This document shows, in pieces, positions 1 through 59,825 of a stretch of 64,000 bases of DNA; within the stretch, counting starts at the first letter, position 1, and the number at the start of each line of letters is the position of its first letter. The DNA comes from Candidatus Woykebacteria bacterium (lineage in GTDB: Bacteria; Patescibacteriota; Microgenomatia; Woykebacterales; RBG-16-39-9b), in the NCBI GenBank assembly GCA_040876265.1, contig JBBDPN010000001.1, positions 118,208-182,207 on the forward strand. The letters run 5' to 3'. The translations under genes and the position numbers were made by a program. The notes under the pieces were generated by a model that saw nothing but the letters and a program-made list of their open reading frames with translations, searched no databases and was not told where the DNA came from.

Positions 1-11
1 GCACAGCGCCT

Positions 12-341
12 ATGGGAGATGATATATTTAATTATCTGAGCCAGAGACAAGGAAGATTTGGTTTTATACTTGGTAGCGAAAATAAACTTATACTGCCTGA
101 TCTGGAAGAGCCAGCAGAAGTTAGAGAATTGTCAACGCCGACCCAGGTTTGGAGAGAATTGTCCGTTGGTGATAAAGTAAGGTATCTGCGGAAAGAAAGT
201 GGCGATCTGTTGGGAGTAGTAAAAGAACTTCCAGGGGAGCAGATAATAAATTCTGGTATTTTGGCACAAGTAGCAAAAGTAGCTTTTAACTCCAAACAGG
301 AATTACTTTTGCCAGCAGCCAATTTAGAAATAATTGAGTAA
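12..341 (+). CDS. hypothetical protein; the frame is open to the window edge, so it may be 5'-partial
   Basis: Six-frame ORF with no recognisable motifs. No in-frame stop lies between position 3 and the ATG at 12. Confidence 0.3.
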   Translation: MGDDIFNYLSQRQGRFGFILGSENKLILPDLEEPAEVRELSTPTQVWRELSVGDKVRYLRKESGDLLGVVKELPGEQIINSGILAQVAKVAFNSKQELLLPAANLEIIE

Positions 342-346
342 TTTTT

Positions 347-1582
347 ATGGAGCAAACTCATACGCAAGAAAAGAAAACTTCGGGCCAAAAAATCACTCGA
401 TTTTTGCCTAAACTAGCGTTTATCGCAATAGTGTTTGTTTTTGGTATCTGGGTCGGGCAAAGTGTTGTCCTACCGTTTGCACCAGAGAGACCACCGCTTT
501 TTAATATCTCCGGTAAAGAGACACCCAATCAAATAAAAGCTGATTTTACTCCGTTTTGGCAAGCTTGGGACAAGGTTACCACCGAGTATTTAGAAAGAAA
601 TAAACTAGACCCGCAAGATCTGATCTACGGTGCTATCTCGGGTATGGTCCGAGCCATAGGCGATCCGTATACTGTTTTCCTTGACCCACAGCAGAATAGC
701 GAGTTTGAACTTTCACTTTCAGGCACCTATGAAGGAGTGGGTATAGAGCTTGATGTTCGGGACGAGCAGCTTGTGGTTGTAGCTCCAATCGATGGCACAC
801 CGGCTCAAAAAGCTGGGGTGAAAGCTGGGGATAAGATACTTGAAATTGATGGAACGGATACACGGGCCTTGACTATACAGGAAGCTGTTCAAAAGATCCG
901 TGGTGAAAAGAATACAGATGTTGTTTTGAAGTTGCAACGTAACGGAAAGACGCTAGATATTAAAATAACTCGGGCAAGAATAGTCATCGAGAGTGTCAAG
1001 TTTGAAGATCTTGGTGGAAAAGCGGCGAAAATCCAAATCACTCGGTTTGGCGATAACACCTTGCCTGAATGGAGTAAAGCAGTAAATAAATTTGTTGCTG
1101 GTAATTACAAAAAGTTAGTTCTTGATTTGCGCAATAACCCTGGTGGTAGGTTGGATCTTGCAATATCGATCTCAGCCGATTTTGTTGACAAAGGCACGAT
1201 TACAATGCTGGAGGAAGAAGCCTCTGGAAAGCAAATACCTTTCAAGACAGAGTCTGTTCCACGACTAAAAAATATAGAAACAGTCGTTTTAATCAATGAA
1301 GGTAGTGCTTCAGCTTCGGAGATAGTCGCTGGTGCTCTGCGAGATATTTTGGGAACAAAATTGGTAGGCCAGACCTCATTTGGTAAGGGTACCATCCAGA
1401 GAGTTGATGGTTTACCAAAAGGTGCTGGACTACATATCACGTTCGCTAAATGGCTCACTCCTAAAGGTACTTGGGTAAACAAAAAAGGCTTGAAGCCAGA
1501 TGTGCAAGTGAAGTTGACTGATAAAGATATAGCCGCAAAACGCGATCCCCAACTATCCAAAGCTCTCCAACTCCTCAAATAG
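347..1582 (+). CDS. ctpA: C-terminal processing (tail-specific) peptidase, S41 family
   Basis: N-terminal TM anchor, a PDZ-like segment (GVKAGDKILEIDG) and S41 motifs (LRNNPGG; catalytic-region EGSASASE). Typical Ctp length. Confidence 0.85.
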   Translation: MEQTHTQEKKTSGQKITRFLPKLAFIAIVFVFGIWVGQSVVLPFAPERPPLFNISGKETPNQIKADFTPFWQAWDKVTTEYLERNKLDPQDLIYGAISGMVRAIGDPYTVFLDPQQNSEFELSLSGTYEGVGIELDVRDEQLVVVAPIDGTPAQKAGVKAGDKILEIDGTDTRALTIQEAVQKIRGEKNTDVVLKLQRNGKTLDIKITRARIVIESVKFEDLGGKAAKIQITRFGDNTLPEWSKAVNKFVAGNYKKLVLDLRNNPGGRLDLAISISADFVDKGTITMLEEEASGKQIPFKTESVPRLKNIETVVLINEGSASASEIVAGALRDILGTKLVGQTSFGKGTIQRVDGLPKGAGLHITFAKWLTPKGTWVNKKGLKPDVQVKLTDKDIAAKRDPQLSKALQLLK

Positions 1583-1596
1583 ATCTCGGACAGTCG

Positions 1597-1615
1597 GACA
1601 GGGTCCGTCCCTGTC
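1597..1615. repeat. Palindromic hairpin GACAGGG-TCCGT-CCCTGTC, a variant member of a four-copy intergenic family
   Basis: Read directly: a 7-bp inverted repeat just after the ctp stop codon, preceded by a GGACAG direct repeat. Related copies lie at 14067, 59747 and 61135. Confidence 0.5.
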
Positions 1616-1724
1616 ATCATATATTTATGGCTCCAATTGATTGGACTTTGTGATAAACTAATCTTCTTCGGCCTGCTGGTCGATTTTTCATTTGCACACT
1701 TACAACATAAGGAGGAGATAGGCG

Positions 1725-2684
1725 ATGGTCGATCAACCTGAAAGTGTGGTTGTTCATACCCCAGAGATCCCAGAGTTGAAGAAGGTTAAGGACGGGAAGG
1801 TTCGGAGTATCTTCGAGTTTGACGGAGGGCTCCTGCTCTTTGTGGCCTCTGACAGGATCAGTGCCCGGGATAAGGTGCTGCGGCCAGGCATCCCAGGTAA
1901 AGGCCGGGTGCTAAACAGCATGAGTACCCTCTTCTTTCAGTTAACCTTTGGTATAGCCCCGAACCATATGGTGAGGGAAGAGCAGCTGCCACCACCCTCG
2001 CGTCAGAGGTTGGCTGAGCTCTACGAGGCCTACCCCTGGCTTTCTGGTCGAACGATGGTTGTCCGGGCTGGTCAGGTAGTGCCGATCGAGTTCATCTTCC
2101 GTGCTCACAGCACTGGGTCGTTCTATAAGGCTTACACAGAGTCCGGGGGTTTCGAGAAAGGGGCGACAGTCCTGGGGTACTATTGTCCTCTGGGGATGAA
2201 AAACGGAGATCCGTTCCCGGAGCCAATCTTTACCCCTTCTACGAAGGCTCCCGCCGGAGAACACGACGTTAACGTTACCTATGAAAAGGCCTACGAGCAC
2301 CTGTTGAGAGAGACTGATCTAGGCGTTTCCAAGGCTCGCAGAGTGCTCAACTGGGGTCAGACGCGCGGCCTAGCCCTTACGACATGGGGTTACCGATACG
2401 CTCGAGAACATGGGTTTATCCTGGCTGACCACAAGATCGAAGTGGTTCTGGTTCAAGGTGGAGTCGAGTTGATCGGCGACGAACTTTTTACGCCTGACTC
2501 GTCCCGCTTTCTTCGGCTTGAGGATTTCGAGCGCGGGAACATCGTTCATTACGATAAAGAGCCAGTTAGGGAAGAACTCGACGAAATGTGGGCTGGGAAA
2601 AGCACCCCGCCCAGATTACGTCAGGGCGCCGTGGAGGAAACCGCGCAAAGGTACAGGGCCATCCACGATGCTCTAGTCGTATAA
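1725..2684 (+). CDS. purC: SAICAR synthetase-like protein (long, ADE1-type PurC) with a divergent active-site motif
   Basis: GKVRSIFEFDGGLLLFVASDRISARDKV matches the PurC GKVRDIYE...ATDRISAFD motif with F changed to R. KGRVLNSMSTLFFQ matches KG.LLT..S.FWF, and LADHKIE...DELFTPDSSRF matches the C-terminal PurC motif. Strong RBS AAGGAGGAG. GC content is much higher than the flanks. Confidence 0.7.
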   Translation: MVDQPESVVVHTPEIPELKKVKDGKVRSIFEFDGGLLLFVASDRISARDKVLRPGIPGKGRVLNSMSTLFFQLTFGIAPNHMVREEQLPPPSRQRLAELYEAYPWLSGRTMVVRAGQVVPIEFIFRAHSTGSFYKAYTESGGFEKGATVLGYYCPLGMKNGDPFPEPIFTPSTKAPAGEHDVNVTYEKAYEHLLRETDLGVSKARRVLNWGQTRGLALTTWGYRYAREHGFILADHKIEVVLVQGGVELIGDELFTPDSSRFLRLEDFERGNIVHYDKEPVREELDEMWAGKSTPPRLRQGAVEETAQRYRAIHDALVV

Positions 2685-2741
2685 GAAGAACGAAGAGATG
2701 CAACAACGGCGTCAAGCCTTCTAGCTTGGCGCCTTTCCATT

Positions 2742-2770
2742 TTGACAGACAAGCGGGTGAGATGTATAAT
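2742..2770 (+). promoter_or_regulatory. Perfect consensus sigma70 promoter (TTGACA-17 nt-TATAAT)
   Basis: TTGACA at 2742-2747, a 17-nt spacer, and TATAAT at 2765-2770. An RBS AAGGAG (2794-2799) and a GTG at 2808 follow downstream. Confidence 0.55.
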
Positions 2771-2807
2771 CCTCGGCTATCAAGATCAAGCAGAAGGAGA
2801 GAATACA

Positions 2808-3464
2808 GTGCGTTTCTTCTGGCCAGCGATAACTGTTCTTGTGATCGTTCTCATGGCAATCCTTCTAATGTCCAACAACCGGGAGAGCGGTTCTTGGCAT
2901 CTCTCCGGGGATCGGGATGAGATAGAGATTAAGATTTTGCCCTCTCCTACAACCATCTCCGGCCCAACGGTTGAGGCAGATGAAGAGTTTCCAGGTGGGT
3001 GTCCGCCCCAACAAGTCGTAAAGACGGCGGTGAACTACCAAGGTCAGCCAGTTCAATCGTTCAGTAAGGAGTTTCTAAACCTGCTTGAGCCGATTGAGCT
3101 CCCAAACGGTGTAGTTGGAGCGAAGCTGGAAACAAGTAACTTCTGCGTGTTCGAGATCAACGGGTTGATCTTTGGTGAGTTTGATGGACACCTAGACGTT
3201 GAGGGTCGGTGGGTTTCCGGACAAGAATTTCGTGACTTCCTGGACCAGAGAGGTATTCAGGATGATATCTGCCAGATCATCTGGGCTAGGTGTCAACAAG
3301 AGCCGATCGACCCAGAAACACCTGAGGTACCGAACCAGCAGAGAGATAGAGATCATGGGGCGTTTACCGACCAGTTTGGTAAGCGCCTCTCTTCGTTTGT
3401 TGACATAAAGACTACAAAATGGTTTAATAAATTTTTAGAATGCATCGGTCGGAAAGGGGAATAG
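2808..3464 (+). CDS. hypothetical small membrane/secreted protein (one N-terminal TM helix)
   Basis: The ORF track calls an ATG at 2742, but that codon is the -35 hexamer of the promoter. A GTG at 2808, in frame and 8 nt after AAGGAG, is the more plausible start. TM segment ITVLVIVLMAILLM. No known motifs. Confidence 0.45.
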   Translation: MRFFWPAITVLVIVLMAILLMSNNRESGSWHLSGDRDEIEIKILPSPTTISGPTVEADEEFPGGCPPQQVVKTAVNYQGQPVQSFSKEFLNLLEPIELPNGVVGAKLETSNFCVFEINGLIFGEFDGHLDVEGRWVSGQEFRDFLDQRGIQDDICQIIWARCQQEPIDPETPEVPNQQRDRDHGAFTDQFGKRLSSFVDIKTTKWFNKFLECIGRKGE

Positions 3465-3477
3465 CCAGCATAACTAG

Positions 3478-3501
3478 ATAGCCCGAAGGGGCTATTTTTT
3501 T
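3478..3501 (+). terminator. Intrinsic terminator-like hairpin (TAGCCC-GAAG-GGGCTA) followed by T7
   Basis: A 6-bp GC stem with a GAAG tetraloop and a 7-T run, immediately before the ATG at 3502. Confidence 0.5.
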
Positions 3502-3549
3502 ATGCCTTGGTTTGCCCGAGAGATAAACGCACATTACAAGGAGGTTACG

Positions 3550-4527
3550 GTGCCCAGTAAACCTTGGACAGACTTTCCGGTTGTCGTTTCTGCCAATCAG
3601 TTTGGTCCGAAGTTCCTGATCAAAGAGCTCTTCCCCCTAGCTGATCGCATGAGGGATGTGGCTGAAAATGGAGGCAACAACTCTCTGCAGGGACACGAGG
3701 TGTTCCTGCTTTTCTACGAGGCCTCCACCAGAACTATCACATCTTTCAAACGGGCAACGAAACTTCTTGGCGCCGATTACGACTATACGGAGAGCGCTAG
3801 GCAGTTTTCATCGGCTATCAAAGGCGAAAGTCTTGAGGATACGGTTAGAATCCTCAACGGCTACTACTACAGTCTGATCGTCATTCGTTATGACGAAACA
3901 GGGGGTGCCGCAAGGGCCGCTAGAGCCTCAGAGATCCCCGTGATCAATGCTGGTGATGGTAATGGTGAGCATCCGACCCAAGCGCTGTTGGATCTGTACA
4001 CCATCTATAGCCAGTTCAGTCACTTCGACGGGCTTCGCGTAGCGTTGGTCGGTGATCTGCATAATAGTCGAACTATCCACTCGTTGGCGACGTTACTCGC
4101 CAAGATGGGAGGAGTGGAGCTTTCGCTGGTCTCGCCAAGCAAATTTCGTATAGATGATCACCACACAAGACCCTTTCTCGTCGAGAGTGGTTGCAAATTT
4201 AAGGAGGTAAGCAACCTCATGGAAGTAGCTGGGGAGGTGGATGTTGTTTACCTCACGAGACTTCAGACGGAACGCCTCAAGGCGGTGACCAAAAGTAACG
4301 CCTTGGACTGGGGTGGCGAGGGAAACGTGTGCGTTTGCATTAATGACGAAGTTCTAGGTGCGATGCAGAAAGAAGCAATCATCCTGCACCCCCTGCCTAG
4401 GAGTGATGACTTCGTGGAGCTGCCTGAAAAGCTCGATACCGACCCCCGAGTTCAAATCTTTCAGCAGGCCCAGAACGGACTCTTTGTTCGGATGGCCCTG
4501 TTGGAGATGATACTTGGGGTGTCATAG
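3550..4527 (+). CDS. pyrB: aspartate carbamoyltransferase catalytic chain-like protein (ATCase/OTCase fold)
   Basis: STRT motif (ASTRTITSFK), HPTQALLDL, TRLQTER (Asp-binding R/Q) and HPLPR motifs typical of PyrB. Likely start is the GTG at 3550, 6 nt after AAGGAGG. The alternative ATG at 3502 abuts the terminator T-tract. High-GC island. Confidence 0.7.
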   Translation: MPSKPWTDFPVVVSANQFGPKFLIKELFPLADRMRDVAENGGNNSLQGHEVFLLFYEASTRTITSFKRATKLLGADYDYTESARQFSSAIKGESLEDTVRILNGYYYSLIVIRYDETGGAARAARASEIPVINAGDGNGEHPTQALLDLYTIYSQFSHFDGLRVALVGDLHNSRTIHSLATLLAKMGGVELSLVSPSKFRIDDHHTRPFLVESGCKFKEVSNLMEVAGEVDVVYLTRLQTERLKAVTKSNALDWGGEGNVCVCINDEVLGAMQKEAIILHPLPRSDDFVELPEKLDTDPRVQIFQQAQNGLFVRMALLEMILGVS

Positions 4528-4544
4528 GCTAGAACCTGCCAAGA

Positions 4545-4580
4545 ACCGGAGCGACCGTAGGTTGCTCCGGTTAACTTTTG
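4545..4580 (+). terminator. Hairpin (AACCGGAGC ... GCTCCGGTT) followed by AACTTTT, downstream of the ATCase-like gene
   Basis: 9-bp inverted repeat read directly. The T-tract is weak. Confidence 0.4.
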
Positions 4581-4654
4581 AAAACAATTTAGTTACATTT
4601 TTGATAAAATATCAACAAGGTTGATGTTTTACACCCATTAGTAATGGATATAAA

Positions 4655-5803
4655 ATGAAAATAATGCTCAAAAAGTATAAAAATCAGGTATTTATTATTG
4701 GCGGTTTAGTAGCCGTTTTTTTGCTGGCGGTGATTGTGGGTACGGCTATTGGAGTTTCGTACCCAAATTGGTCAAAAAACCTTTCTTTTCTCCCCGACTT
4801 TTTGAAACCGGCTTCAGGTGTTGAAGAAGTCACTCAAAACGGTGAAAAAGTTATTCGTACAGTAGAGGAGTCGGCTGTTATTGACGTGGCTGACAAGGCC
4901 TCACCAGCCGTTGTTTCAATCGTAGCTTCGCAGGCAACCCTTGATCCGGCTCAAGGTGTTCAAACAGATCAGCAAGGTATCGGGACTGGGTTTATTGTTC
5001 GTAAAGATGGAGTGATCTTGACCGCCTCTCACGTTGTAGATGATGATAGCATCAGCTATAAAGTTGTAACCCGCGATGAAAAACAATTCGACGTTATACA
5101 GATAGATAAAGACCCTTCTGTCGATTTCGCTATTTTAAAAATAAAAGCAGGGGGTTTACCGATCTTAAAATTAGCTGACTCGGATTCTGTAAGAGTTGGT
5201 CAGAAAGTTGTGGCCATCGGTAATGCTCTTGGTCGTTTTAGCAACACCGTGACAGTGGGAGTGGTGTCCGGTGTTGGCCGTGGGGTAGCTGCTTCAAATG
5301 CGTCTGGTATCTCTCAAGGAACCTTAGAAAATGTCATCCAGACAGACGCTGCGCTCAATCCGGGAAACAGTGGTGGTCCACTGCTGGATCTTTCTGCCAA
5401 CGTAATCGGGATAAATTTTGCCACTACTGTTGGCGCGGAGAACATCGGCTTTGTCATACCAGCCAATAGTGTAGAGCCAGTCCTTCAGCAATATCTAGCA
5501 GAGGGTAGAATAATTCGCCCGTTCCTAGGTATTTCTTATGTAATTGTTGACGAGACAACTTCAGTGCTGCAAGGTATTCCTCAAGGTGTCTTTGTCCAAA
5601 GAGTGCTGGCTGGCACACCTGCAGCAAAAGCAGGTTTGGAAGCAGGAGACGTGATAACAAAGTTTGGTGGGCAAAAGTTGGATGAAAATCAAACGCTTTC
5701 TAGAGTGATTGGTAAATTCAAGGTGGGTCAAACAATTGAGTTGGAAGTAAACCGAGATGGGAAGACTGTTAAACTGAAGACAACACTTACAGAAGCCCCA
5801 TGA
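4655..5803 (+). CDS. htrA: HtrA/DegP-family periplasmic serine protease with a C-terminal PDZ domain
   Basis: N-terminal TM helix. Trypsin-like motifs (TASHVV; DAALNPGNSGGPLLD) and a PDZ segment (GLEAGDVITKFGG). Confidence 0.85.
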   Translation: MKIMLKKYKNQVFIIGGLVAVFLLAVIVGTAIGVSYPNWSKNLSFLPDFLKPASGVEEVTQNGEKVIRTVEESAVIDVADKASPAVVSIVASQATLDPAQGVQTDQQGIGTGFIVRKDGVILTASHVVDDDSISYKVVTRDEKQFDVIQIDKDPSVDFAILKIKAGGLPILKLADSDSVRVGQKVVAIGNALGRFSNTVTVGVVSGVGRGVAASNASGISQGTLENVIQTDAALNPGNSGGPLLDLSANVIGINFATTVGAENIGFVIPANSVEPVLQQYLAEGRIIRPFLGISYVIVDETTSVLQGIPQGVFVQRVLAGTPAAKAGLEAGDVITKFGGQKLDENQTLSRVIGKFKVGQTIELEVNRDGKTVKLKTTLTEAP

Positions 5804-5863
5804 TCTATCTGCTTCTTTGACACCTGCGTTTGCAACCCCGTAAAATAAATCCTAAAGGGTTAT

Positions 5864-7141
5864 ATGTTGGAAAAACTAAAATCACACTCGTTTAGGCAGG
5901 ATATTTATCTTTTCTTAACCTTTATTCTTTTTGCCTCTATTGTTATTACGGTAGATAGCCTCTCGACGCTTCGGAACACACAGACCCAAGCTACCCACAC
6001 AATTGAAACTTTACTCTTTGATGATTTCAATTCCTCCTCTTTGAATACAACTTTGTGGGGAAGCGCAGTTACGAGGAGTAATTCTCATGTTCAGATTAGT
6101 AACGGCACCGTGAGAATAAAGGTTGACAACCTGCCGGATACATATGCGCAGCTTTATTCCAAAAAGAGTTTTCCTGTAGGTTCCACTTTCGAAACCAGGA
6201 TAAACGTTACCGGGGGGCAATCATACGATCACAAAACTATTGGTTTCTCCAATTCTAGAGCGGGTAGTGATTGTAGCAATGGGGAAACAGAAGCGGTGGT
6301 GTGGAGAGGTGGGGATAAGGACAAACGCGTCCTAGCTGAAAGCGGGGGTAGTGTTACTTGCCCCATTATACAATCATCTTACCCCGCTGGTTGGCGAACG
6401 ATAAAAATTGTTAGAGTAAGCAGTAGTGAAGCTAGGATTTATGAGGACGGTGTGCTACTAAAAACTTTTAATTCCAATATTCCTACGGGGAATTTACCTG
6501 TTCGAATTAGCGGTTATACTCACGAGACAAGCTGGCCTTCAACAGAAATTTGGATGTACGTGGATTGGGTCAAAGTGACCAAACCAAAAGCTCACTCGAC
6601 CGCACCGCCGCCGTCCCTACCAAAAAGCAGTAAAGGTACCAGCAGTGGTGGATCTTCACCTCCTGCAGCACAACCAAGTCCCACAGATGCTACAAAAACT
6701 TCTTCGAGCAAAAATATTCTGAATTCGCTGAACTTAAAAATTTCTATCCCTTATTTGCTGGGTAAAATAAATTTACCAATTAAATTCTCCAAAGTCTCGA
6801 AGAGCTTGGAAGTTTTACCAGGAAGAGTAGAGTATAGTGTTAATGTGAGAGGGGATGAAATACTGCTGGGCAAGGTCTATACACTTACCGTTGGGGGAGG
6901 TAAGGTTTTAAGTAAGAAAGTTAGATTCAACGCGAAAGCACCGAAAATGAAAGTAAATGTTGGCAGCCTTATTCTAGGTGATGTCAACTCAGATTCGGTG
7001 ATCAATAATGGGGATGATGACCTATTTGTGGATTTTCTGGTTGGTCAAAGTGTAGATGGCGATGTAAATGCCGATGGTGCTACCAATTCACTGGACTGGG
7101 CGATAATTCTTAAGAATTTTGATAAAATAGGAGACAGATGA
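5864..7141 (+). CDS. secreted protein with a ConA-like lectin/glucanase-like domain, a Pro/Ser-rich linker and a C-terminal dockerin-like domain
   Basis: Signal/TM anchor at the N-terminus. The C-terminus carries two dockerin-like Ca-binding repeats (GDVNSDSVINNGDDDLFVDFLVGQ; DGDVNADGATNSLDWAIILKNF). A PSLPKSS...SSPPAAQPSPTD linker lies between the domains. Confidence 0.6.
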   Translation: MLEKLKSHSFRQDIYLFLTFILFASIVITVDSLSTLRNTQTQATHTIETLLFDDFNSSSLNTTLWGSAVTRSNSHVQISNGTVRIKVDNLPDTYAQLYSKKSFPVGSTFETRINVTGGQSYDHKTIGFSNSRAGSDCSNGETEAVVWRGGDKDKRVLAESGGSVTCPIIQSSYPAGWRTIKIVRVSSSEARIYEDGVLLKTFNSNIPTGNLPVRISGYTHETSWPSTEIWMYVDWVKVTKPKAHSTAPPPSLPKSSKGTSSGGSSPPAAQPSPTDATKTSSSKNILNSLNLKISIPYLLGKINLPIKFSKVSKSLEVLPGRVEYSVNVRGDEILLGKVYTLTVGGGKVLSKKVRFNAKAPKMKVNVGSLILGDVNSDSVINNGDDDLFVDFLVGQSVDGDVNADGATNSLDWAIILKNFDKIGDR

Positions 7142-7827
7142 CAATTACAAAACTGCTCATTACCTCCGGGTTAATTATTTTCTCAACCACTTCTTTTAGT
7201 CAAGTTGCTCTCGCCCAGGAAAAAAATTCCGAAATCATACTTTATCCAAGCTATCGGGAGGTCCGAGTTGGGGAGAATTTCAAAATTGATGTGTTGGCCA
7301 AATCTGATGCGCCTCTAATTGGAGGAGATGTAAAGATAAGTTTTGACCCGCGGGTGATTGAGGTCGTTTCTATCGACACCGGTCAGGCTTTTGATAGCGT
7401 ACCTTTGAAAAAGGTGGAAGAAGGGAAGATTACTATCACTGCCATTAACGAGCGTGAGGGAAATCTATTCAGTGGTGTGGGTAGGGTGGTTACTTTGAAT
7501 TTGAAAACAATTGATGCTGGGGATACTAGTCTGAAAGTTGATTTTGATCCAGGAGCTTCAACCGATTCAAATTTAACTAGCGCCGAAGTTTCCGATACTT
7601 TAGCAAAGGTGGATAGCTCAACGTATATTGTTGGCGGCCCGTTGGAGAGAGCAGTTGGATCAGCTAAAAGATTTGTTATGGCGGTAGCTCCGCTCTTTAT
7701 TTTCTTAATTTTCGCAGGAATAGTTGCTTACGTAGGTTTTAGGTGGTGGAAGTACCGAGAGCAGCAACCAAAAGACGTCTTTATTCCTAGAAAAGTCCCG
7801 TTGGACAAGCCCCCAGAGGCGTCTTAA
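7138..7827 (+). CDS. cohesin-domain protein with a C-terminal transmembrane anchor
   Basis: Cohesin-like beta-sandwich signature (VRVGENFKIDVLAKSD...GGDVKISFDPRVIEVVSI; TLNLKTIDAGDTSLKVDFD). C-terminal TM helix (APLFIFLIFAGIVAYVGF) with a basic tail. Its ATGA start overlaps the stop of the dockerin gene. Confidence 0.6.
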   Translation: MTITKLLITSGLIIFSTTSFSQVALAQEKNSEIILYPSYREVRVGENFKIDVLAKSDAPLIGGDVKISFDPRVIEVVSIDTGQAFDSVPLKKVEEGKITITAINEREGNLFSGVGRVVTLNLKTIDAGDTSLKVDFDPGASTDSNLTSAEVSDTLAKVDSSTYIVGGPLERAVGSAKRFVMAVAPLFIFLIFAGIVAYVGFRWWKYREQQPKDVFIPRKVPLDKPPEAS

Positions 7828-8585
7828 TAATTTTTGACAAAAGTATCCCCGTCGATCTCATAAAAAAGTAACCCGTTTGGCTTCAAAACACTTGCGGCCC
7901 GGTCAAAGAGTTTTCGGTAAATCTTTAACCCATCTCTACCGCCATCCAGGGCTATAGTTGGTTCCCAGCGACTTACCTCTGGTTGAAGTTTTTTTAGCCT
8001 GGTAGTTGGTATGTAAGGCAAATTAGCCACAATAAAATCAGCCTTTTCGGTGACAGATTCCAAGAGGTCGCCCTTAAGCAAACTTATTTTTTTCGAAAGC
8101 CCGTGGTGGCTAATGTTTTGTTTTGCGACATTGTAAGCATCATTATCTATCTCAGTTGCAAATATTTTCGCAAACGGGACTGCCTTTGCTAAAGCAATCG
8201 CGATATTTCCGCTGCCGGTCCCGACATCAACAATTGTTAGCTGATCGTGTTTCCAGTGGTTTTTCCGATTTCTGTTTGGAATAGAGTACACTTGCTTTAT
8301 TACTTCGGTAACCAGATCTTCTGTCTCCGGCCTGGGTACCATTACTCTTTTGTCAACGTAGATTTTCAACCCACAAAATTCTTTATAGCCTAAAATGTAA
8401 GCCAACGGCTCACTCTGAGCCCGTCTTTTAACAAATTCTTTAAGTTTTGTTGCGTGGCCTGTTTTTAGCCTGAAGTTGGGAAAAGCTTTTACAAACGATC
8501 GGTCCCTTTTCAGTAGGTGGGAGAGAATTATCTCGGCTTCGGTTAGGTCGATTTCGCTTTGCTGTAAAGCCGCCTCAATTAACAT
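7824..8585 (-). CDS. prmC: release factor glutamine N5-methyltransferase
   Basis: SAM motif VGTGSGNIAIALA and NLPY(I) substrate motif. Immediately downstream of prfA. Confidence 0.85.
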   Translation of the reverse strand: MLIEAALQQSEIDLTEAEIILSHLLKRDRSFVKAFPNFRLKTGHATKLKEFVKRRAQSEPLAYILGYKEFCGLKIYVDKRVMVPRPETEDLVTEVIKQVYSIPNRNRKNHWKHDQLTIVDVGTGSGNIAIALAKAVPFAKIFATEIDNDAYNVAKQNISHHGLSKKISLLKGDLLESVTEKADFIVANLPYIPTTRLKKLQPEVSRWEPTIALDGGRDGLKIYRKLFDRAASVLKPNGLLFYEIDGDTFVKNY

Positions 8586-8607
8586 GTCCTAGTATTATAC
8601 ATGTGTG

Positions 8608-9504
8608 TCAAGTAGAAATCGATTTTTTTGTAGCAGTTAGAATTGGATCCAAGTTACCGGCGAGGATTTCTTCGATATGATGCCAAGATTTGTTTATGCG
8701 GTGGTCAGTGATCCGATCTTGCGGAAAGTTGTAAGTGCGGATTTTTTCGCTTCGCTCCCCAGTGCCCACCTGAAGTTTGCGGGAAAGAGCCACTCCTTCT
8801 TTTTCAGCCGCCTTTTGAGCCTCGTAAATTCTCGACCTTAAGATAGATAGAGCCCTTTCCTTATTTTGAAATTGCGAACGTTCTGATTGACAAGTGACAA
8901 CTACATTCGTTGGCAGGTGAGTCACACGAACAGCTGTTTCTACTTTTTGGACGTTTTGGCCACCATGACCAGAAGCGTGGTAGGTTTCTATCTTCAAATC
9001 TTTTGGATCCAAATGAAATTCCCGGTCGGATATTTCTGGCAGCACAGCGACGGTCGCAGTAGAGGTGTGGATGCGACCCCCGCTTTCCGTCTTTGGTACT
9101 CTTTGAACCCGATGAACACCGGATTCGGCTCTTAAATTTTCATAAACTGGCGCTCCGCTAACTTGGAATACTACTTCTTTGATGTTGCCAATTCCACCCT
9201 CATTGAGAGAAAGTTGCTGGACCTTCCAACCCTTGTTTTCGGAAAAACGCGTGTACATACGATAGAGATCTGCCGCAAAAAGACCAGCCTCACTACCACC
9301 GGCGGCCGCGCGTATTTCCATTATAACGGAACTTGGAGGAGACTCCACTGATGGTTTTGAAGACCCAAGCAGCTGCTTTTTCTGACTTTCCAAGGCCGCG
9401 ATTTCCTCCTTGGCAAGAGCCTCCATAGAAGGGTCGGCCAACAATCGCTGGGCTTCTTGCATTTTTTTATCCAGCTCTTCTATTTGTTTTTCTAAATAGT
9501 TCAT
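8608..9504 (-). CDS. prfA: peptide chain release factor 1
   Basis: GGQ motif (SGHGGQNVQKVETAVRVTHLPT) and an RF1-type PxT region (RVQRVPKTESGGRIHTS). Confidence 0.85.
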   Translation of the reverse strand: MNYLEKQIEELDKKMQEAQRLLADPSMEALAKEEIAALESQKKQLLGSSKPSVESPPSSVIMEIRAAAGGSEAGLFAADLYRMYTRFSENKGWKVQQLSLNEGGIGNIKEVVFQVSGAPVYENLRAESGVHRVQRVPKTESGGRIHTSTATVAVLPEISDREFHLDPKDLKIETYHASGHGGQNVQKVETAVRVTHLPTNVVVTCQSERSQFQNKERALSILRSRIYEAQKAAEKEGVALSRKLQVGTGERSEKIRTYNFPQDRITDHRINKSWHHIEEILAGNLDPILTATKKSIST

Positions 9505-9875: not shown

Positions 9876-9941
9876 GTTAGATCGAAAGTTTATCATAAAA
9901 ATTTGGGTTTAACAAGGATGGGGGCTGGGGTTTCATATGAA

Positions 9942-9969
9942 TTGATTTGGCGCACACTATTGTTATAAA
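9942..9969 (+). promoter_or_regulatory. sigma70-like promoter (TTGATT-16 nt-TATAAA) ahead of the locus-1 operon
   Basis: Hexamers and spacer read directly. The ATG at 9981 follows with almost no leader. Confidence 0.4.
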
Positions 9970-10673: not shown

Positions 10674-13217
10674 ATGCAACTATTAATTACTATCGTCACT
10701 GTATTTTTCTTTTTTATCTTCTTTTTTATTCTCATCATTGCTCTGGCGATGCTGCTTCGTTTTCGGAACCGAAAAGAAAAATCACTCGAATACACTCAAC
10801 TTGAAGTTAAACTCCCTCGGAACAACGAAATAAAAATAGAGTCAACTGAAAGTTTTTTCACCTCGCTTTACAGTTTGTTTCGGCATGGTGTTCAGGGGTT
10901 TTTATCAGGTCAGGAGCATATCGGTTTTGAGATAGTATCTCAAGGAGGAGTAATAAAATTTTTTGTTACTGCGCCAAATCCACTGCTTTCCTTGGTCGAA
11001 AAGCAAATACATTCTTTTTACCCGGAAGCAGAAATTAATTCGGTGGAGGAATACAACATTTTTCAGCCCGGTCTCTATGTTGATCTGGTCGAACTTTCTT
11101 TACGCTCCCCAGCCTTCCGACCGATAATTCGCTACAACCAATTGAAGGAAGTCGAGACGATGAACGCGATTACGACCGCGATGAGTAAGCTCGATAGTGA
11201 AGAAGCGATGGCGTTACAAATACTTATTTCTCCGGCTGGAATTGGGTGGCAGGGTGCTGGTTTTTCCCAGATACACAAGGCGCAAACAGTTGAGAAAAAG
11301 GGAATAATGACGCCATTTAATTTACCTCCCTCCTACCAACAGCAGCAAGAGGCTCCACCGCAACCGGAAGCGAGAACCGAAAGTATTACTCAGGAACCTT
11401 ACAAAAAAATTGAGGAAAAAGTCTCTAAGCCTGGATTTGAGACGGTAATACGAATTGTGGTTTCAGCGAAAAATAAGCTGACCGCTCTCGCCTACATAGA
11501 AAACATGGTTGGGGCTTTTGGTCAATTTAATGATCCGACCGCCAATGGTTTCAGAAAACGTCGGTTTCCCTGGACTCTCACGAAAGTTCTTTCCTTGCGC
11601 CAATTTATTTATAAAATGATGCCTTTTTGGTTTGGTAAAATGATTTTAAACTCAGAAGAACTAGCAACCATATTTCATTTTCCAAACAAAAACGTGGTAA
11701 CACCAAATATTGATTGGCTGCTTTACAAAAAGGCAGCCGCTCCAAACGTAGTGCCAAAAGAAGGGCTTTATCTTGGAAAAAGCATATTCCGAGGTGTAGA
11801 AACAAAAATCTATATTCAGCCAGATGATCGCCGGCGCCACATGTATATTATTGGGCAAACCGGTACCGGGAAGAGCGAATTTATGAAAATTATGGCGGTC
11901 CAGGATATAAAAGAGGGTAAAGGGGTTTGCTTTATAGATCCTCACGGAGGTGCGATTGAGGATATTTTGTTACAAATTCCACCGGAGCGGGCCGAAGATG
12001 TAATTCTTTTCGACGCTGGTGATACCGAAAGACCTCTTGGGATAAATATTCTAGAAACTCGGACTGAAGAGGGGAAACACCAAATGGTAAACCATTTCAT
12101 CCACCTTCTTTACAAACTTTATGACCCAAAGCGCACCGGTATCATGGGTCCGCGACTCGAGCGAGCAATCCGAAATGTGATGCTCACGGCAATGAGTGAG
12201 CCAGGTAGTACCTTGGTTGAAGTCCTGCGGCTGCTGATCGATCCTCAGTTTGTGAAAGAAACCCTACCAAAAGTTACCGACCCGTTAGTTCGTCGCTACT
12301 GGACTGATGAGGTGGCCCAAACCACCACTTTTCACAAAAGTGAAGTAATGGGTTATTTTGTTTCCAAATTTGATCGTTTTGTGACTGAAAAGCTAATGCG
12401 AAATATTATTGGGCAAAGCAAAAGCGCTTTTGATTTTCGGGACGTGATGGATAGTGGCAAAATTCTCCTTGTTGATCTATCAAAAGGAAAAATAGGCGAG
12501 GAAAATTCTAACTTTCTTGGGCTTGTGCTCGTACCGCGTATTTTGGTTGCGGCGATGAGTAGGGTGGATGTGCCCGAAGAGCAGCGACGAGATTTTCACC
12601 TTTACGTGGATGAGTTTCAAAATTTTGCCACTCCTGATTTTGCCCAGATACTTTCAGAGGCCCGAAAATACCATCTGGATTTGACGGTGGCCAATCAATT
12701 TATCGCCCAAATACAGGAGGAGGGAATACGCGAAGCCGTATTTGGTAACGTGGGTACCCTGATTGCTTTTCGGGTTGGCGTGGACGATGCTAAGTATTTG
12801 GAGTTCCAATTTGATCCGGTATTCAAAAAAGAAGATTTGATCAATAACGCTTTAGGGCACGCCTACGTCCGACTGCTTGTCGACGGGCAGCCCTCGTATC
12901 CATTTTCCATGGCGACAGATTGGGAAATGATGCAGGCGGTTACCAGAAACAAAGAAGTCGCCGAATCTATCGTCGAGCTGTCAAGGCTCAAATACGGTCG
13001 CGATCGGCAAATAGTTGAGGCGGAGATAAACCAACGAGCCGGCCTCGACGAGACGCCCACCACCATGCCAGAACCAGCTAAACCAGTTCCACCCCAAGCT
13101 GCCAAATCCGCCCCGACGCAACAACCGTTGCCGCAAGCCCAACCAGTTCAACAACCCACACCAGCCGTTCAAGAAACTTCCCTTCAACAAAACCTCCAAA
13201 AAACCGGAGGCGGGTAA
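10674..13217 (+). CDS. membrane-anchored P-loop ATPase of the FtsK/HerA/VirB4/TrwB (T4SS coupling protein-like) superfamily
   Basis: N-terminal TM helix. Walker A GQTGTGKSEF (compare TrwB GATGTGKS), Walker B HLYVDEFQNF, and EARKYHLDLTVANQ (RKY-type motif of DUF87/VirB4/HerA). Gln/Pro-rich C-terminal tail. Paralog of 34633..37401. Confidence 0.7.
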   Translation: MQLLITIVTVFFFFIFFFILIIALAMLLRFRNRKEKSLEYTQLEVKLPRNNEIKIESTESFFTSLYSLFRHGVQGFLSGQEHIGFEIVSQGGVIKFFVTAPNPLLSLVEKQIHSFYPEAEINSVEEYNIFQPGLYVDLVELSLRSPAFRPIIRYNQLKEVETMNAITTAMSKLDSEEAMALQILISPAGIGWQGAGFSQIHKAQTVEKKGIMTPFNLPPSYQQQQEAPPQPEARTESITQEPYKKIEEKVSKPGFETVIRIVVSAKNKLTALAYIENMVGAFGQFNDPTANGFRKRRFPWTLTKVLSLRQFIYKMMPFWFGKMILNSEELATIFHFPNKNVVTPNIDWLLYKKAAAPNVVPKEGLYLGKSIFRGVETKIYIQPDDRRRHMYIIGQTGTGKSEFMKIMAVQDIKEGKGVCFIDPHGGAIEDILLQIPPERAEDVILFDAGDTERPLGINILETRTEEGKHQMVNHFIHLLYKLYDPKRTGIMGPRLERAIRNVMLTAMSEPGSTLVEVLRLLIDPQFVKETLPKVTDPLVRRYWTDEVAQTTTFHKSEVMGYFVSKFDRFVTEKLMRNIIGQSKSAFDFRDVMDSGKILLVDLSKGKIGEENSNFLGLVLVPRILVAAMSRVDVPEEQRRDFHLYVDEFQNFATPDFAQILSEARKYHLDLTVANQFIAQIQEEGIREAVFGNVGTLIAFRVGVDDAKYLEFQFDPVFKKEDLINNALGHAYVRLLVDGQPSYPFSMATDWEMMQAVTRNKEVAESIVELSRLKYGRDRQIVEAEINQRAGLDETPTTMPEPAKPVPPQAAKSAPTQQPLPQAQPVQQPTPAVQETSLQQNLQKTGGG

Positions 13218-14068
13218 TGAGTGAAGAAGCCCCTGGTCCAAGTGAAGAAGATTTGAGCCCAAGTGATTTGGAGAGCGACGGGGGAGAGAAAGGCGAATCG
13301 GGATTTGAGGCTAAGAGATTTTTGGATTCTGAGAAGAGCAGGATCTCAGATGAATGGAAAGCGGCTGTAGTCGAGTCGATTGAGCAAAGCAATGAATTTG
13401 GTAAAAACCCATTAAAACCAGTTATTCAGCAATACTACGATGGTTCTTCAGCTTCTCACGCTGTTCAGTGCGCGACCAATAGGGTGGTTTATAGCGGGTT
13501 TATGAGTGAGACACTTCAAGGAGTTCTTGAGTCCGAAGAAAGCGCAGGCGCAGAAAAAGAAATTGCCGCCGAAATACTTCCAGAAGTCGAGTTTCAAAAT
13601 CAGCTGAATTCTACCTTGTCGCAGTTGATGGTTGCCGATCTTTTGACTTACAAACAAGTTCACGACCCCGCTTATCCAGCAGAGAAGAAAATAGGGATTG
13701 TCGATAGCGATCCAAAAAGAGAGCGGGGGAGTTTCCCGATTGTCTCTCGGGAGCTACAAAGACTAAAATCTGACCTTGAAAAGTTACAACCGCAGTTGCG
13801 GGCCAGACTAGAGAGTCTGCACGAAAAATATCCTGATGAATTTTCAGAAAATCCCCAAGTTGCTGAAATCTACGAAAGATTTATAGCTGAGACAAAAAGT
13901 GCAGGCCAGATGGTTGAAGCGGCAGTGCAAGCCAATGATGTTGGCCAAGCCAGCGATCTAGACATAGCAATGAAAAGGCTAGTCGGCCATTTTGCAGATG
14001 GCGCATTTGTCGCCGAAGACGTCGTCAGCGCACATGCTTTAAGAAAAATGAAAGAGGTAGAGAAGTGA
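13217..14068 (+). CDS. hypothetical acidic protein translationally coupled to the ATPase
   Basis: Its ATG overlaps the ATPase stop (TAATG). No recognisable motifs. Confidence 0.45.
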   Translation: MSEEAPGPSEEDLSPSDLESDGGEKGESGFEAKRFLDSEKSRISDEWKAAVVESIEQSNEFGKNPLKPVIQQYYDGSSASHAVQCATNRVVYSGFMSETLQGVLESEESAGAEKEIAAEILPEVEFQNQLNSTLSQLMVADLLTYKQVHDPAYPAEKKIGIVDSDPKRERGSFPIVSRELQRLKSDLEKLQPQLRARLESLHEKYPDEFSENPQVAEIYERFIAETKSAGQMVEAAVQANDVGQASDLDIAMKRLVGHFADGAFVAEDVVSAHALRKMKEVEK

Positions 14069-14085
14069 CAGGGCCTGGCCCTGTC
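14067..14085. repeat. Palindromic hairpin GACAGGG-CCTGG-CCCTGTC, followed by GGTTGGTGGG
   Basis: Perfect 7-bp inverted repeat overlapping the stop of 13217..14068, sited between convergent genes. Confidence 0.55.
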
Positions 14086-14098
14086 AGGGGTTGGTGGG

Positions 14099-14419
14099 TC
14101 AGGATTTTTTGGAGGAAAGTCTTTGCTGGTGGTACTGCGTGAGAAAGCCAGTGACGAAACTATCTAACATCTCATCGCTTACCGCTGCAACATCTTTATC
14201 AGTTTTTTGTTTATATAATTTTGCTATTTCTACTTTCATTTCTTCGGGAGGGAGAGAATTGAGTCGAGACATTTCTTTTTCATCATTCAATGCGGTAGCA
14301 ACTTCTAGATAGAGTTTTTGTGACAATAAATTATTCAAATTAATTATAAAGGTCCGCGCGTCATCATCTTTGACACCATTTTCTTTGAGAATTTTAATTA
14401 CCTTATTTAAGTCAGCCAT
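14099..14419 (-). CDS. hypothetical small helical protein
   Basis: ORF only. Downstream of the 776-aa gene on the same strand. Confidence 0.4.
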   Translation of the reverse strand: MADLNKVIKILKENGVKDDDARTFIINLNNLLSQKLYLEVATALNDEKEMSRLNSLPPEEMKVEIAKLYKQKTDKDVAAVSDEMLDSFVTGFLTQYHQQRLSSKKS

Positions 14420-42305: not shown

Positions 42306-43247
42306 ATGCTGCCGCACATCGAAGATTTTCTTTTATCCTTGCAGACTAACAACTATTCCCCCGAAACTGTCTATAATTATGATCGTGATTTAAAAGTTTT
42401 CGACCAATTTTTATCCGAAGCTGGCACTTCCTTTGATAAAGTTGATAAAACCACCATCGCCCGCTATAAGGCCTACCTCACGTCTCGCGACAGAAAAACG
42501 CCAATTAGCTTGAAAGAACAAGAAAAAATTCTAGTTTCACGTTCGGTAAATAGAATGCTGTCTAGTTTACGCAGCTTCTTAAAATTCCTTATTGAGATGG
42601 ATAAGCCGGTGCCCGTGCCGCCAGAAGCAGTGAAGCTAACCAAGACGGAGAGAAAGCACCCACAGGTGGCTGAGATGAACGAACTGATCAGCCTTATTGA
42701 GGCTCCAAATAAGTTTGAGAAAGATAAGCTAGTGACGCTGCGTAATCGGGCGATACTTGAAGTCCTTTTTGCCACCGGTATGCGCATTTCGGAACTTTGT
42801 TCATTAAATAGAAACCAGATTGACGATTCTGGAAAAATATTTATTATGGGTAAGGGTAAGAAGCAGAGGTTCGTCTATCTCACGCCCCGTGCTACCGAGC
42901 ATCTAAATAGGTACCTTTCTACCCGAAAGGACATTCTACCCGCTCTTTTTATCCCCTATGCCGGTCAAAATGTGAATAGCGCCAAAAAAAGAATCGCGAC
43001 AAATTATTTACAAGCTAAGATAAAGGAGTATCGGGAGAAATTGAAAATAAACGTTCCTACGAGTGCTCACAGTCTGCGGCATGGCTTTGCGACGTACCTG
43101 GCGGAGGAGGGAGCCTCACCAGCGGCAATTCAGATCCTTCTTGGTCACGAGTCGCTGGATACGACTACCCGTTATGTTCACGCCAGTGATCGCTTCGCCC
43201 AAGAAACTCACCGCAAATACCACCCCCTGGCTGAGGCTGATGATTAA
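42306..43247 (+). CDS. tyrosine site-specific recombinase, XerC/XerD-like
   Basis: Tyrosine recombinase catalytic residues in ATGMRISE, HSLRHGFATYL and LLGHESLDTTTRYVH. Confidence 0.8.
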   Translation: MLPHIEDFLLSLQTNNYSPETVYNYDRDLKVFDQFLSEAGTSFDKVDKTTIARYKAYLTSRDRKTPISLKEQEKILVSRSVNRMLSSLRSFLKFLIEMDKPVPVPPEAVKLTKTERKHPQVAEMNELISLIEAPNKFEKDKLVTLRNRAILEVLFATGMRISELCSLNRNQIDDSGKIFIMGKGKKQRFVYLTPRATEHLNRYLSTRKDILPALFIPYAGQNVNSAKKRIATNYLQAKIKEYREKLKINVPTSAHSLRHGFATYLAEEGASPAAIQILLGHESLDTTTRYVHASDRFAQETHRKYHPLAEADD

Positions 43248-43279
43248 ACTATTTCCAGAAGCTATGCGCTACCAAAAAA

Positions 43280-44869: not shown

Positions 44870-44988
44870 GAGATGAATTTAATAATTGTGTTAAGCAACT
44901 TATGTTCGAGAAGTCCATAAATGCAGATTGTACTTCAAAAACGCTTCCTTATAATATTGGGTTTACTTGCTAAAATTATTATAACAAA

Positions 44989-50246: not shown

Positions 50247-50252
50247 GGTTAC

Positions 50253-52511: not shown

Positions 52512-52606
52512 TTAGAAATTCACATATTTTGAACTTTTAAATACCCTTCTGGGTTCCCCCGCCCTCTGTAAAGAGGGCGGGGTCCACCAGAAAAAGCAAT
52601 TACGCT

Positions 52607-59665: not shown

Positions 59666-59746
59666 ATACGTAACTATACACTATTTACCTTCCGCTACTC
59701 TACTATAGAATTTTTGGTGTAAGATACGAAATAATATGCTTAGCTT

Positions 59747-59765
59747 GACAGGGCCTGGCCCTGTC
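59747..59765. repeat. Palindromic hairpin GACAGGG-CCTGG-CCCTGTC, followed by CTGGGTTGATAGG
   Basis: Identical 19-mer to the copy at 14067. Located just beyond the intrinsic terminator of 59826..60425. Confidence 0.55.
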
Positions 59766-59825
59766 CTGGGTTGATAGGACGGGAAAAACTGAAAGCAGCC
59801 CCTGCGTTTCACGCGAAAGAGCTGC

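Follow-up and report, generated by a model that had tools for sequence, protein, structure and literature searches.

The question raised by this locus is why a GC-rich segment with two genes of nucleotide biosynthesis should lie between ctp and htrA in the genome of a Candidatus Woykebacteria bacterium (assembly GCA_040876265.1, contig JBBDPN010000001.1). The window, i.e. the whole stretch of 64,000 nucleotides (nt) that was analysed, carries at this site three plus-strand genes, a purC-like gene, a gene here called X and a pyrB-like gene, which are flanked on the left by ctp (347-1582, Peptidase_S41 and PDZ domains) and on the right by htrA (4655-5803, Trypsin_2 and PDZ domains). In a preliminary description, the segment was regarded as a horizontally acquired island, and its two enzymes either as a repurposed pair or as a remnant of a nucleotide-biosynthesis fragment. 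The reading as a remnant fits best, because the slot holds a larger gene set in relatives (dapA, purB, purE, purC, X and pyrB). The segment is probably the form taken in this genome by a modular biosynthetic cassette that recombines and that Woykebacteria keep between ctp and htrA.

The ctp-htrA slot in related genomes

The slot was found to be syntenic in nine further assemblies, each with a variable cassette drawn from a pool of dapA, purB, purE, purC, X, a zinc-ribbon open reading frame (ORF) and pyrB. The loci of the related assemblies compared with the window are designated by L-numbers. The slot contained purC, X and pyrB in L002; purB, purC, X, the zinc-ribbon ORF, a leader and two ORFs in L003; purB and purC, followed by the contig end, in L087; dapA, purB, purC, X and pyrB in L090; orf118, purB, an AIRC-domain gene, purC (with a frameshift) and pyrB (with an in-frame stop) in L091; only pyrB in L092/L093; dapA, X, the zinc-ribbon ORF and pyrB in L099; and a leader and pyrB in L106. 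Thus, pyrB occurred without purC in L092 and L099, and purB-purC occurred without pyrB in L003 and L087. An assembly artefact is excluded for the island, since its arrangement recurred in assemblies made independently from other samples; the exact PurC protein was also present in the Logan assembly of SRR27977662. The purB genes were bona fide members of TIGR00928 (364 and 363 against a cutoff of 326), dapA scored 312 against 206 for TIGR00674, and the AIRC-domain gene of L091 was a weak match as purE. In four relatives (L003, L087, L090 and L091) purC lay directly 3' of purB and overlapped it, and the AIRC-domain gene adjoined it in L091. By tblastn, neither the window nor the 10 kb upstream of it contained purB, purE or dapA. 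A conserved leader, described below as the pur leader, precedes purC in the window and in L002 and purB in L087, L003 and L090, and purB was therefore cleanly deleted in the lineage of the window.

Exchange within the slot was followed by comparing cassette genes with their flanks. Between L090 and L099, htrA was 97% identical in amino acids with an identity of 0.90 at 4-fold degenerate sites, and dapA was 92% identical with the same 4-fold value, whereas the interiors differed by an indel of 2.5 kb (pur leader, purB, purC and terminator, in L090 only), X was 36% identical and pyrB was 50% identical at the protein level with a 4-fold identity of 0.29. By blastn, the two loci formed a mosaic with, from left to right, 92% identity in the repetitive extragenic palindrome (REP) and dapA, the 2.5-kb indel, 78% in the promoter of X (P_X), none in X, 83% in the pyrB leader, none in pyrB and 95.6% in htrA. 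The 2.5-kb pur module was 85% identical in nucleotides between L087 and L090 (4-fold identity 0.67-0.71), as against a 4-fold identity of 0.28-0.43 for ctp of L087 compared with that of L092/L099. The locus closest to the window by its flanks was L002 (75-78% in amino acids), with purC at 64%, X at 37% and pyrB at no more than 39%, and the pyrB of the window was closest to that of L092 (63-64%). Such incongruence of cassette and flanks was observed for L090-L099, L090-L092, L087-L090 and window-L002. Since near-identical strains differ by a purB-purC indel and by pyrB alleles of 50% identity, the slot recombines, and judged by these alignments it is a recombination hot-spot at which modules appear to be replaced. 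A strictly vertical descent of purC was also considered and was dropped after the analyses of synonymous sites and of the mosaic; the gene is old and clade-specific, yet it has been shuffled within the clade.

No mark of mobility was found at the slot: the sole tRNA gene of the window lies at 22587, its sole integrase gene at 42306-43247, and no direct repeats flank the slot. Searches of viral contigs, of phage genomes and of plasmids yielded generic PurC and ATCase (aspartate carbamoyltransferase) sequences alone, none above 44% identity, and no vehicle was recognized. A DNA-uptake machinery and RecA have been reported for Patescibacteriota (PMC11809585). The likely route of exchange would be DNA uptake followed by homologous recombination through the conserved flanks and regulatory blocks. 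In the literature on Woykebacteria, on nucleotide metabolism in the candidate phyla radiation (CPR) and on PurC structures, background was found, and nothing on this cassette.

Taken as a cassette, the locus would be built from three modules, i.e. (i) dapA, (ii) the pur leader followed by purB, sometimes purE, and purC, and (iii) a strong promoter followed by X, sometimes the zinc-ribbon ORF, a second leader and pyrB, with conserved regulatory blocks at the module junctions. Modules would be gained, lost or swapped for alleles of deep divergence, and imported DNA that recombines homologously is the most likely means. The cassette of the window would have been cut down to the pur leader with purC, P_X with X, and the second leader with pyrB, purB having been deleted. 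In this arrangement purC and pyrB would be transcribed separately and would have independent roles in purine and pyrimidine metabolism, where each may feed a complete pathway, rather than act as a pair.

The same losses can also be read as decay, with purC and pyrB as partnerless leftovers of a larger cassette that play no present part in physiology and are becoming pseudogenes in the course of genome reduction. Most CPR bacteria lack de novo nucleotide synthesis (PMC6744442), which would suit such an explanation, and so would the frameshifted purC and the interrupted pyrB of L091 (the latter also with Q231A and R234Y), the loss of purB and purE in the window, the absence of pyrB from L003 and of purC from L092 and L099, and the lack of any other pur or pyr gene in 74 kb. 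Decay of the window genes is nevertheless unlikely, for both ORFs are intact and keep all invariant catalytic residues, purC has diverged to a degree similar to that of the flanks (64-70% identity) in spite of saturated synonymous sites, which points to purifying selection, and leaders, promoters and ribosome-binding sites are kept across the same divergence.

PurC

The purC gene (1725-2684, plus strand) encodes 319 residues, of which residues 21-288 are covered by a match to PF01259 (SAICAR_synt, 1e-44). Its best match in the Protein Data Bank was yeast Ade1 (1a48; 135 bits, 1.8e-38), with residues 20-315 aligned end to end. The protein stayed under every equivalog cutoff of NCBIfam; the best score was 215.8 against 251 for NF010568, and 108.9 against 189.9 was obtained for TIGR00081. 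It belongs to a clade of seven members, all from Woykebacteria, with 57-80% identity within the clade and 60-71% to the protein of the window, and with at most 37-43% identity to any other PurC. Pattern scans of genome contigs for the clade gave, among the matches listed, only sequences of no more than 40% identity and none from a Woykebacteria genome.

The active sites, whose inspection had been proposed in the preliminary description, were compared by alignment, and the catalytic residues of both enzymes were found to be kept. For PurC the residues concerned (sites for adenosine triphosphate (ATP), Mg, carboxyaminoimidazole ribonucleotide (CAIR) and aspartate) are D43, R44, S46, D49, E122, R126, G131, T170-A175, H180 and D181, together with D235, K237, E239, D252, E253, T256-R261, D277, K278 and R282, all of which the clade has in common with 111 other PurCs. 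At about ten further positions (R48, F125, A/T/V127, H128, H236, I/L238, V240, V241, E279 and P280) the clade is fixed for residues other than those that are nearly invariant in the 111 other long-form PurCs, and it carries three clade-specific insertions. The replacement of the motif DRISAFD by DRISARD, as reported earlier, is present. By these alignments the clade is a distinct subfamily and not a product of decay. PurC appears to be under purifying selection, because its divergence is like that of the housekeeping flanks while the synonymous sites are saturated. From every residue that can be compared, purC is predicted to encode a synthetase of succinylaminoimidazole carboxamide ribotide (SAICAR), which would form SAICAR from CAIR, aspartate and ATP.

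A changed substrate is the other reading that these data allow, namely that the clade is a neofunctionalised ligase which couples aspartate, or else some other amine, to a compound that is not CAIR. Such a change would agree with the scores below all PurC cutoffs, with the fixed positions and insertions of the clade and with the persistence of purC in genomes without purB. It is very unlikely, since the residues invariant across PurCs are all kept and since purC overlaps a bona fide purB in four relatives and adjoins the AIRC-domain gene in one. The switched positions also differ between the E. coli-type and the long-form PurCs, and the exchanges of F for V and of V for F on neighbouring strands look like compensated repacking of the core.

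PyrB

The pyrB gene (3550-4527, plus strand) probably starts at a GTG, is preceded by the ribosome-binding site (RBS) AAGGAGG at 3538-3544 and encodes 325 residues, in agreement with the 319-321 residues of its relatives and with the public gene call; an alternative in-frame ATG at 3502 is less likely. The protein scored 278.1 bits against a cutoff of 236.95 for TIGR00670 (ATCase) and 115.5 against 280.85 for TIGR00658 (ornithine carbamoyltransferase), and its closest solved structure, Arabidopsis PYRB (6ypo, 271 bits), was aligned end to end. Residues were judged in an alignment with 114 other ATCases and numbered by the E. coli sequence, which was used for numbering only. The carbamoyl-phosphate site (S52, T53, R54, T55, R105, H134 and Q137, with S80 and K84 of the neighbouring chain) and the aspartate site (R167, R229, Q231 and L267 of the HPLPR loop) are kept, and pyrB is predicted to encode an ATCase, which would form N-carbamoyl-aspartate from carbamoyl phosphate and aspartate. 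The only changed site is Arg56 of the motif STRTR, which is kept in 106 of the 114 other ATCases and is replaced by Ile in the window, giving the STRTI noticed before, and by I, V, M, S, L or F in the slot clade. In the E. coli enzyme, Arg56 forms a bridge to Gly72 at the C1-C2 interface of the trimer and is not a ligand (PMC6056424). The proposal that such motif changes point to altered chemistry is therefore set aside, Arg56 being an interface residue at a position that varies within the clade.

Allele classes of pyrB within the slot were 42-50% identical, and in a rough neighbour-joining tree most slot ATCases (the window type, L090 and L099/L106) formed one deep clade among ATCases of low-GC Microgenomates. 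One sub-lineage of the slot ATCases (L099 at 2853-3815, L106, and P0175 on an 846-kb contig) reads S-E-R-T-L and not S-T-R-T-R; its members may not be normal ATCases, because Thr53 of the carbamoyl-phosphate loop is replaced by Glu. A solo ATCase gene with host-like G+C content at third codon positions (GC3) and a simple consensus promoter was observed in other Microgenomates, namely L094 (GCA_964412475.1) and L096 (333-kb contig); it had no leader hairpin and no pyr gene within 10 kb on either side. Solo pyrB genes may be common in this superphylum. A catabolic use of ATCase in reverse, with a carbamate kinase for ATP, was also considered and rejected, as no carbamate kinase or pyrimidine-degradation gene is present in the 74 kb.

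The suggestion that PurC and PyrB were repurposed together, as a system of two enzymes for the modification of a small molecule containing aspartate, was based on the use of L-aspartate by both enzymes, the closeness of their genes and their common unusual composition. It has very little probability: the two genes are found apart in relatives and belong to different transcription units, between which lie a terminator, a promoter and the gene of an unrelated membrane protein; in the ATCase, the residues for free aspartate (R167, R229 and Q231) and the carbamoyl-phosphate site are all kept; and purC is linked to purB and purE, whose products act at consecutive steps of the purine route.

Promoters, leaders and the X protein

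The purC and pyrB genes each have a conserved promoter and leader of their own. The pur leader (1651-1688, plus strand) consists of an extended -10 element TGATAAACT at 1651-1659, a hairpin TCGGCC-tgct-GGTCGA at 1668-1683 and a T5 run at 1684-1688, and is followed by the RBS AAGGAGGAG of purC at 1709-1717. Homologous leaders are located 5' of purC in L002 (~9921-9960) and 5' of purB in L087 (5517-5555), L003 (8500-8535) and L090 (1207-1250), and L091 contains two variant copies (~2270-2300 and ~2745-2775) with the compensatory stem CTGATC/GATCAG. The common layout is a hairpin about 10 nt or less after TGATAAACT, with a TGCT loop and a run of T5-6. By this layout the element is a putative promoter or attenuator, and its hairpin could be either an attenuator or a 5' stabilising stem.

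Downstream of purC, a terminator-like hairpin GGCGTCAAGCC...GGCTTGGCGCC with a T-rich tail (2708-2733, plus strand) is kept in L090, L002 and L003. It is followed by P_X (2742-2770, plus strand), a perfect sigma-70 consensus promoter (TTGACA-17-TATAAT, 12 of 12 positions, the only such match in the region), which is kept in L002, L090, L099 and L003. A consensus promoter had been described for the whole island. The promoter exists; because of its position between purC and X it is assigned to X, and it does not drive the island as a unit. The hairpin terminators described earlier are present as well, one after purC and one, AACCGGAGC...GCTCCGGTT (4544-4572, plus strand), 3' of the pyrB stop at the right end of the GC-rich segment; the latter was read from the sequence and had not been called by the terminator scan because its T-run is short.

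The small membrane protein noted between the enzymes is X (2808-3464, plus strand), which has 218 residues, an N-terminal transmembrane helix and a GTG start after GAAGGAG. A longer ORF of 240 residues from the TTG at 2742 was rejected, since that TTG is the -35 hexamer itself. No match to X was obtained in Pfam or NCBIfam, and about ten relatives were found among 1.84 billion representatives; X occurs in L002, L090, L099 and L003, always between P_X and the pyrB leader. In the family alignment it has a fast-evolving, Cys-containing domain with invariant C65-P-P, F112-C113-x-F115, C155 and W159. The AlphaFold2 model from the single sequence had a mean predicted local distance difference test score of 42 and was confident only for the helix of residues 5-26. 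Similarities to Calx-beta repeat proteins (P0244) and to P0245 were weak, looked driven by composition and were not used. As judged from the alignment, X is a real but orphan family. In L099 (2289-2639) and L003 (~11655-11845), a small zf_Tbcl (treble-clef zinc-ribbon) ORF, which is not found in the window, lies between X and the pyrB leader.

The pyrB leader (3400-3501, plus strand) overlaps the 3' end of X, and its promoter, with the -35 element TTGACA at 3400-3405, a spacer of 17 nt and the -10 element TTTAAT at 3423-3428, is located inside the end of the X ORF; it was missed by the consensus scan because the -10 element has T at position 2. It is followed by a T5 run at 3432-3436, a leader ORF MHRSERGIASITR from the ATG at 3440 to the TAG at 3479-3481, whose stop lies in the foot of the hairpin, the hairpin ATAGCCC-gaag-GGGCTAT at 3478-3495 with a T-run to 3501, and a conserved RBS block before pyrB. 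The leader was recognized in eight loci, i.e. the window, L092 (2925-3040), L090 (4300-4412), L002 (11644-11748), L099 (2690-2800), L106 and L003 (11893-11990), with a variant in L091 (5723-5825). Hairpins were folded one by one, as a MAFFT alignment of the eight put L091 and L003 out of structural register. At least four different stems (ATAGCCC/GGGCTAT, AGCCC/GGGCT, ACGGCC/GGCCGT and AAACCGGC/GCCGGTTT) occur at one position, each followed by T6-7, and seven of the eight fold better than shuffled sequences; the independent changes are few, and this count carries no formal covariation statistic. A leader ORF was present in every case, with 9-13 codons and its end 0-8 nt before the stem or inside it, except that the ORF of L091 has 27 codons and runs through the hairpin. 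The search of Rfam with positions 1-9000 of the window (E<=1) gave no riboswitch or leader family, and only two chance-level matches inside ctp. By its layout, the pyrB leader is a candidate leader-peptide transcription attenuator. The conserved leaders of promoter, hairpin and T-run before pur genes and before pyrB, as recognized in these comparisons, appear as a new finding. In L003, pyrB is replaced at 12028-12614 by two small ORFs (75 and 116 residues) without a Pfam match, the second of which has CxxC...CxxC-like cysteines.

A palindrome of the REP-like type, GACAGGG-tccgt-CCCTGTC (1597-1615, plus strand), lies directly 3' of the ctp stop. It belongs to a family GACAGGG-N5-CCCTGTC with four copies in the window (at 1597, 14067, 59747 and 61135) as against 0.08 expected, and counterparts 3' of ctp are present in L002, L003, L087 and L099. 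The palindromic repeat that had been placed at the flank of the island is thus a member of a real family; it is not specific for the border, the copies being located at gene ends throughout the window. The copies at 14066-14104 and 59746-59784 have a longer unit of 39 nt in common.

Nucleotide composition

The GC content, in windows of 400 nt, was 0.50-0.565 across 1601-4600 and about 0.40-0.46 in the flanks, and the 2-kb stretch 2001-4000 had the maximum of all 64 kb (0.515). The GC3 values of purC, X and pyrB were 0.613, 0.530 and 0.586 (z = 4.9, 3.0 and 4.3), respectively, which are the top three values of the window, the 48 other genes having a mean of 0.402 and a standard deviation of 0.043. 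The excess over background was 0.13-0.21, and the raised GC of the segment given in the preliminary description is borne out. By synonymous-codon likelihood, purC (z = -2.1) and pyrB (z = -2.2) deviated and X (z = -0.1) did not, so that the deviation in codon usage, which had been proposed earlier as a check, holds for the two enzymes and not for X.

The composition is old. In all genomes compared, cassette genes had a GC3 of 0.48-0.64 and flanks one of 0.27-0.40, the exceptions being pyrB of L092 (0.40) and of L091 (0.33). Between the window and every other genome the 4-fold sites were saturated, in flanks and purC alike (identity 0.22-0.39, expected 0.25-0.28). Since the synonymous sites are saturated and yet GC3 stays high, the high GC3 is not an un-ameliorated composition of a donor; on these comparisons it is a long-standing trait of the cassette gene pool and appears not to be the trace of a recent import. 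Some process must keep it up, be it biased gene conversion at the hot-spot, selection or a renewed import from a part of the pool with higher GC.

The view of horizontal acquisition is thus retained in part: exchange does take place at the locus, with direct incongruence of cassette and flanks, and the anomaly is real, while the recent import from a distant GC-rich donor does not hold. The phylogenetic placement agrees with this, as purC forms the Woykebacteria-only clade with no identifiable donor, which speaks against a distant import, and pyrB nests in low-GC Microgenomates. That the 3-kb island was recently acquired as a whole from a distant organism of higher GC, in favour of which stand the GC3 excess and the deviating codon usage of purC and pyrB, is hardly credible, as the nearest relatives of all three genes are those of other Woykebacteria at the same chromosomal site, PurC has no clear donor beyond its clade (<=43%), pyrB lies among low-GC Microgenomates ATCases, the high GC3 is common to the cassettes of relatives despite saturated 4-fold sites, and no integrase, tRNA or direct repeat is found at the borders.

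Weighing of the cassette reading

Several points weigh against the reading as a modular, recombining cassette. All functions given here are read from sequence. The position of PurC below the equivalog cutoffs, together with about ten fixed substitutions beside catalytic residues, leaves room for an altered specificity of the enzyme. No other pur or pyr gene was found by gene calls and Pfam in the 64-kb window and the 10 kb upstream, and PurC and PyrB may therefore lack pathway partners; no PurB of this metagenome-assembled genome was among the best 120 matches to the PurB profile, which is a weak negative since a distant purB would rank lower. The -10 element TTTAAT of the pyrB promoter is without the canonical A at position 2, and in L003 a leader of the pyrB type stands before two unrelated small ORFs, so that this type of leader is not bound exclusively to pyrB. 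The tree of ATCases was built by simple neighbour joining and places L002 and L091 outside the slot clade, and the cassette reading does not account for the persistence of the raised GC3.

The cassette reading may be extended further, to a pool of 'metabolic patch' modules (a pur module, a pyrB module with a leader-peptide attenuator of its own, and dapA), each with its own regulation, which strains would interchange at one slot by transformation and recombination. This extension is speculative and rather improbable. If it were true, reduced symbionts would tune which host-derived intermediates (e.g. aminoimidazole ribonucleotide or CAIR, carbamoyl phosphate and aspartate) become nucleotides, GC-biased gene conversion at the hot-spot would explain the permanent rise of GC3, and the locus would be a case of strain-variable, recombination-driven metabolic complementation in CPR bacteria and a first example of regulatory RNA tied to it.

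CPR bacteria (Patescibacteria) are believed to rely on hosts for their nucleotides, and the 'orphan' genes of biosynthesis scattered over their genomes are commonly set aside as relics. At the present locus such genes would be exchangeable modules with conserved control regions at a defined hot-spot of one CPR lineage, and close strains differ in them. If the enzymes are active, strains would differ in the nucleotide intermediates open to them, with consequences for host dependence and for strategies of cultivation. The two leaders are concrete candidates for regulation in a group in which almost none has been described, and with its saturated yet GC-rich synonymous sites this very small genome offers a clean case in which biased gene conversion can be compared with selection. 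What is new at the level of the locus is the exchange of metabolic genes as modules in CPR bacteria, together with the two leaders and the persistent GC3 anomaly; the enzymes are ordinary.

Other features of the window

After the phage-type integrase gene at 42306-43247 comes the stretch with the lowest GC in the window (GC 0.35-0.38; 42306-46137 overall), with an alpha-amylase gene on the minus strand (43280-44869, GC3 0.33) and a glycosyltransferase gene (44989-46137, GC3 0.28). The region 42306-46137 may be a second, AT-rich island. Two paralogous genes for large ATPases (10674-13217 and 34633-37401), with DUF8128 and DUF87/TraG- or TrwB-like domains, resemble type IV coupling proteins, and each is followed by a small unannotated gene. 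On the minus strand of the region 49800-53700, the ORFs at 50253-52511 and 52607-53737 contain periodic repeats of 261-264 nt, among which four copies of 211 nt with 63-74% identity and shorter families were distinguished; these ORFs, which have no Pfam match, probably encode repetitive surface proteins.

Comparison with known systems

The PurC of the window resembles the long-form SAICAR synthetases of yeast (Ade1) and Mycobacterium (PurC; 1a48 and 6yvq) in its full-length alignment, in the linkage to purB in relatives and in the motifs GKVR, DRIS, FTPSTKA, GEHD, D-x-K-x-E, DE..TPDSSR and DK..VR, and differs from them in its identity of no more than 43%, its scores below the cutoffs, the change of SAFD to SARD and the three insertions. 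PyrB shares with the ATCases of TIGR00670 the ligands, length and domain order and passes the equivalog cutoff, and differs from the standard enzyme in the clade-wide loss of Arg56 and in the lack of pyrI or any other pyr gene nearby.

The pyrBI operon of E. coli is controlled by a leader-peptide attenuator and by reiterative transcription at T-runs that is sensitive to uridine triphosphate. The leader of the window is like it in having a promoter, a short ORF and an intrinsic terminator directly 5' of pyrB, and a T5 run in the predicted start region. In contrast to pyrBI, it has no sequence similarity or Rfam family, is A-rich and not U-rich, and contains a much shorter leader ORF (9-13 codons) that stops at the foot of the hairpin, with the exception of L091.

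Flexible ('replacement') genomic islands are alternative cassettes between core genes that are exchanged by homologous recombination, e.g. the O-antigen and capsule loci. The slot between ctp and htrA agrees with them in its fixed position between core genes, the divergent alleles in near-identical strains, the lack of an integrase or transposase, the atypical composition and the mosaic identity with sharp breakpoints. It is unlike them in its cargo of central metabolism (dapA, purB, purC and pyrB), in its reduced CPR host and in the leaders at the module junctions.

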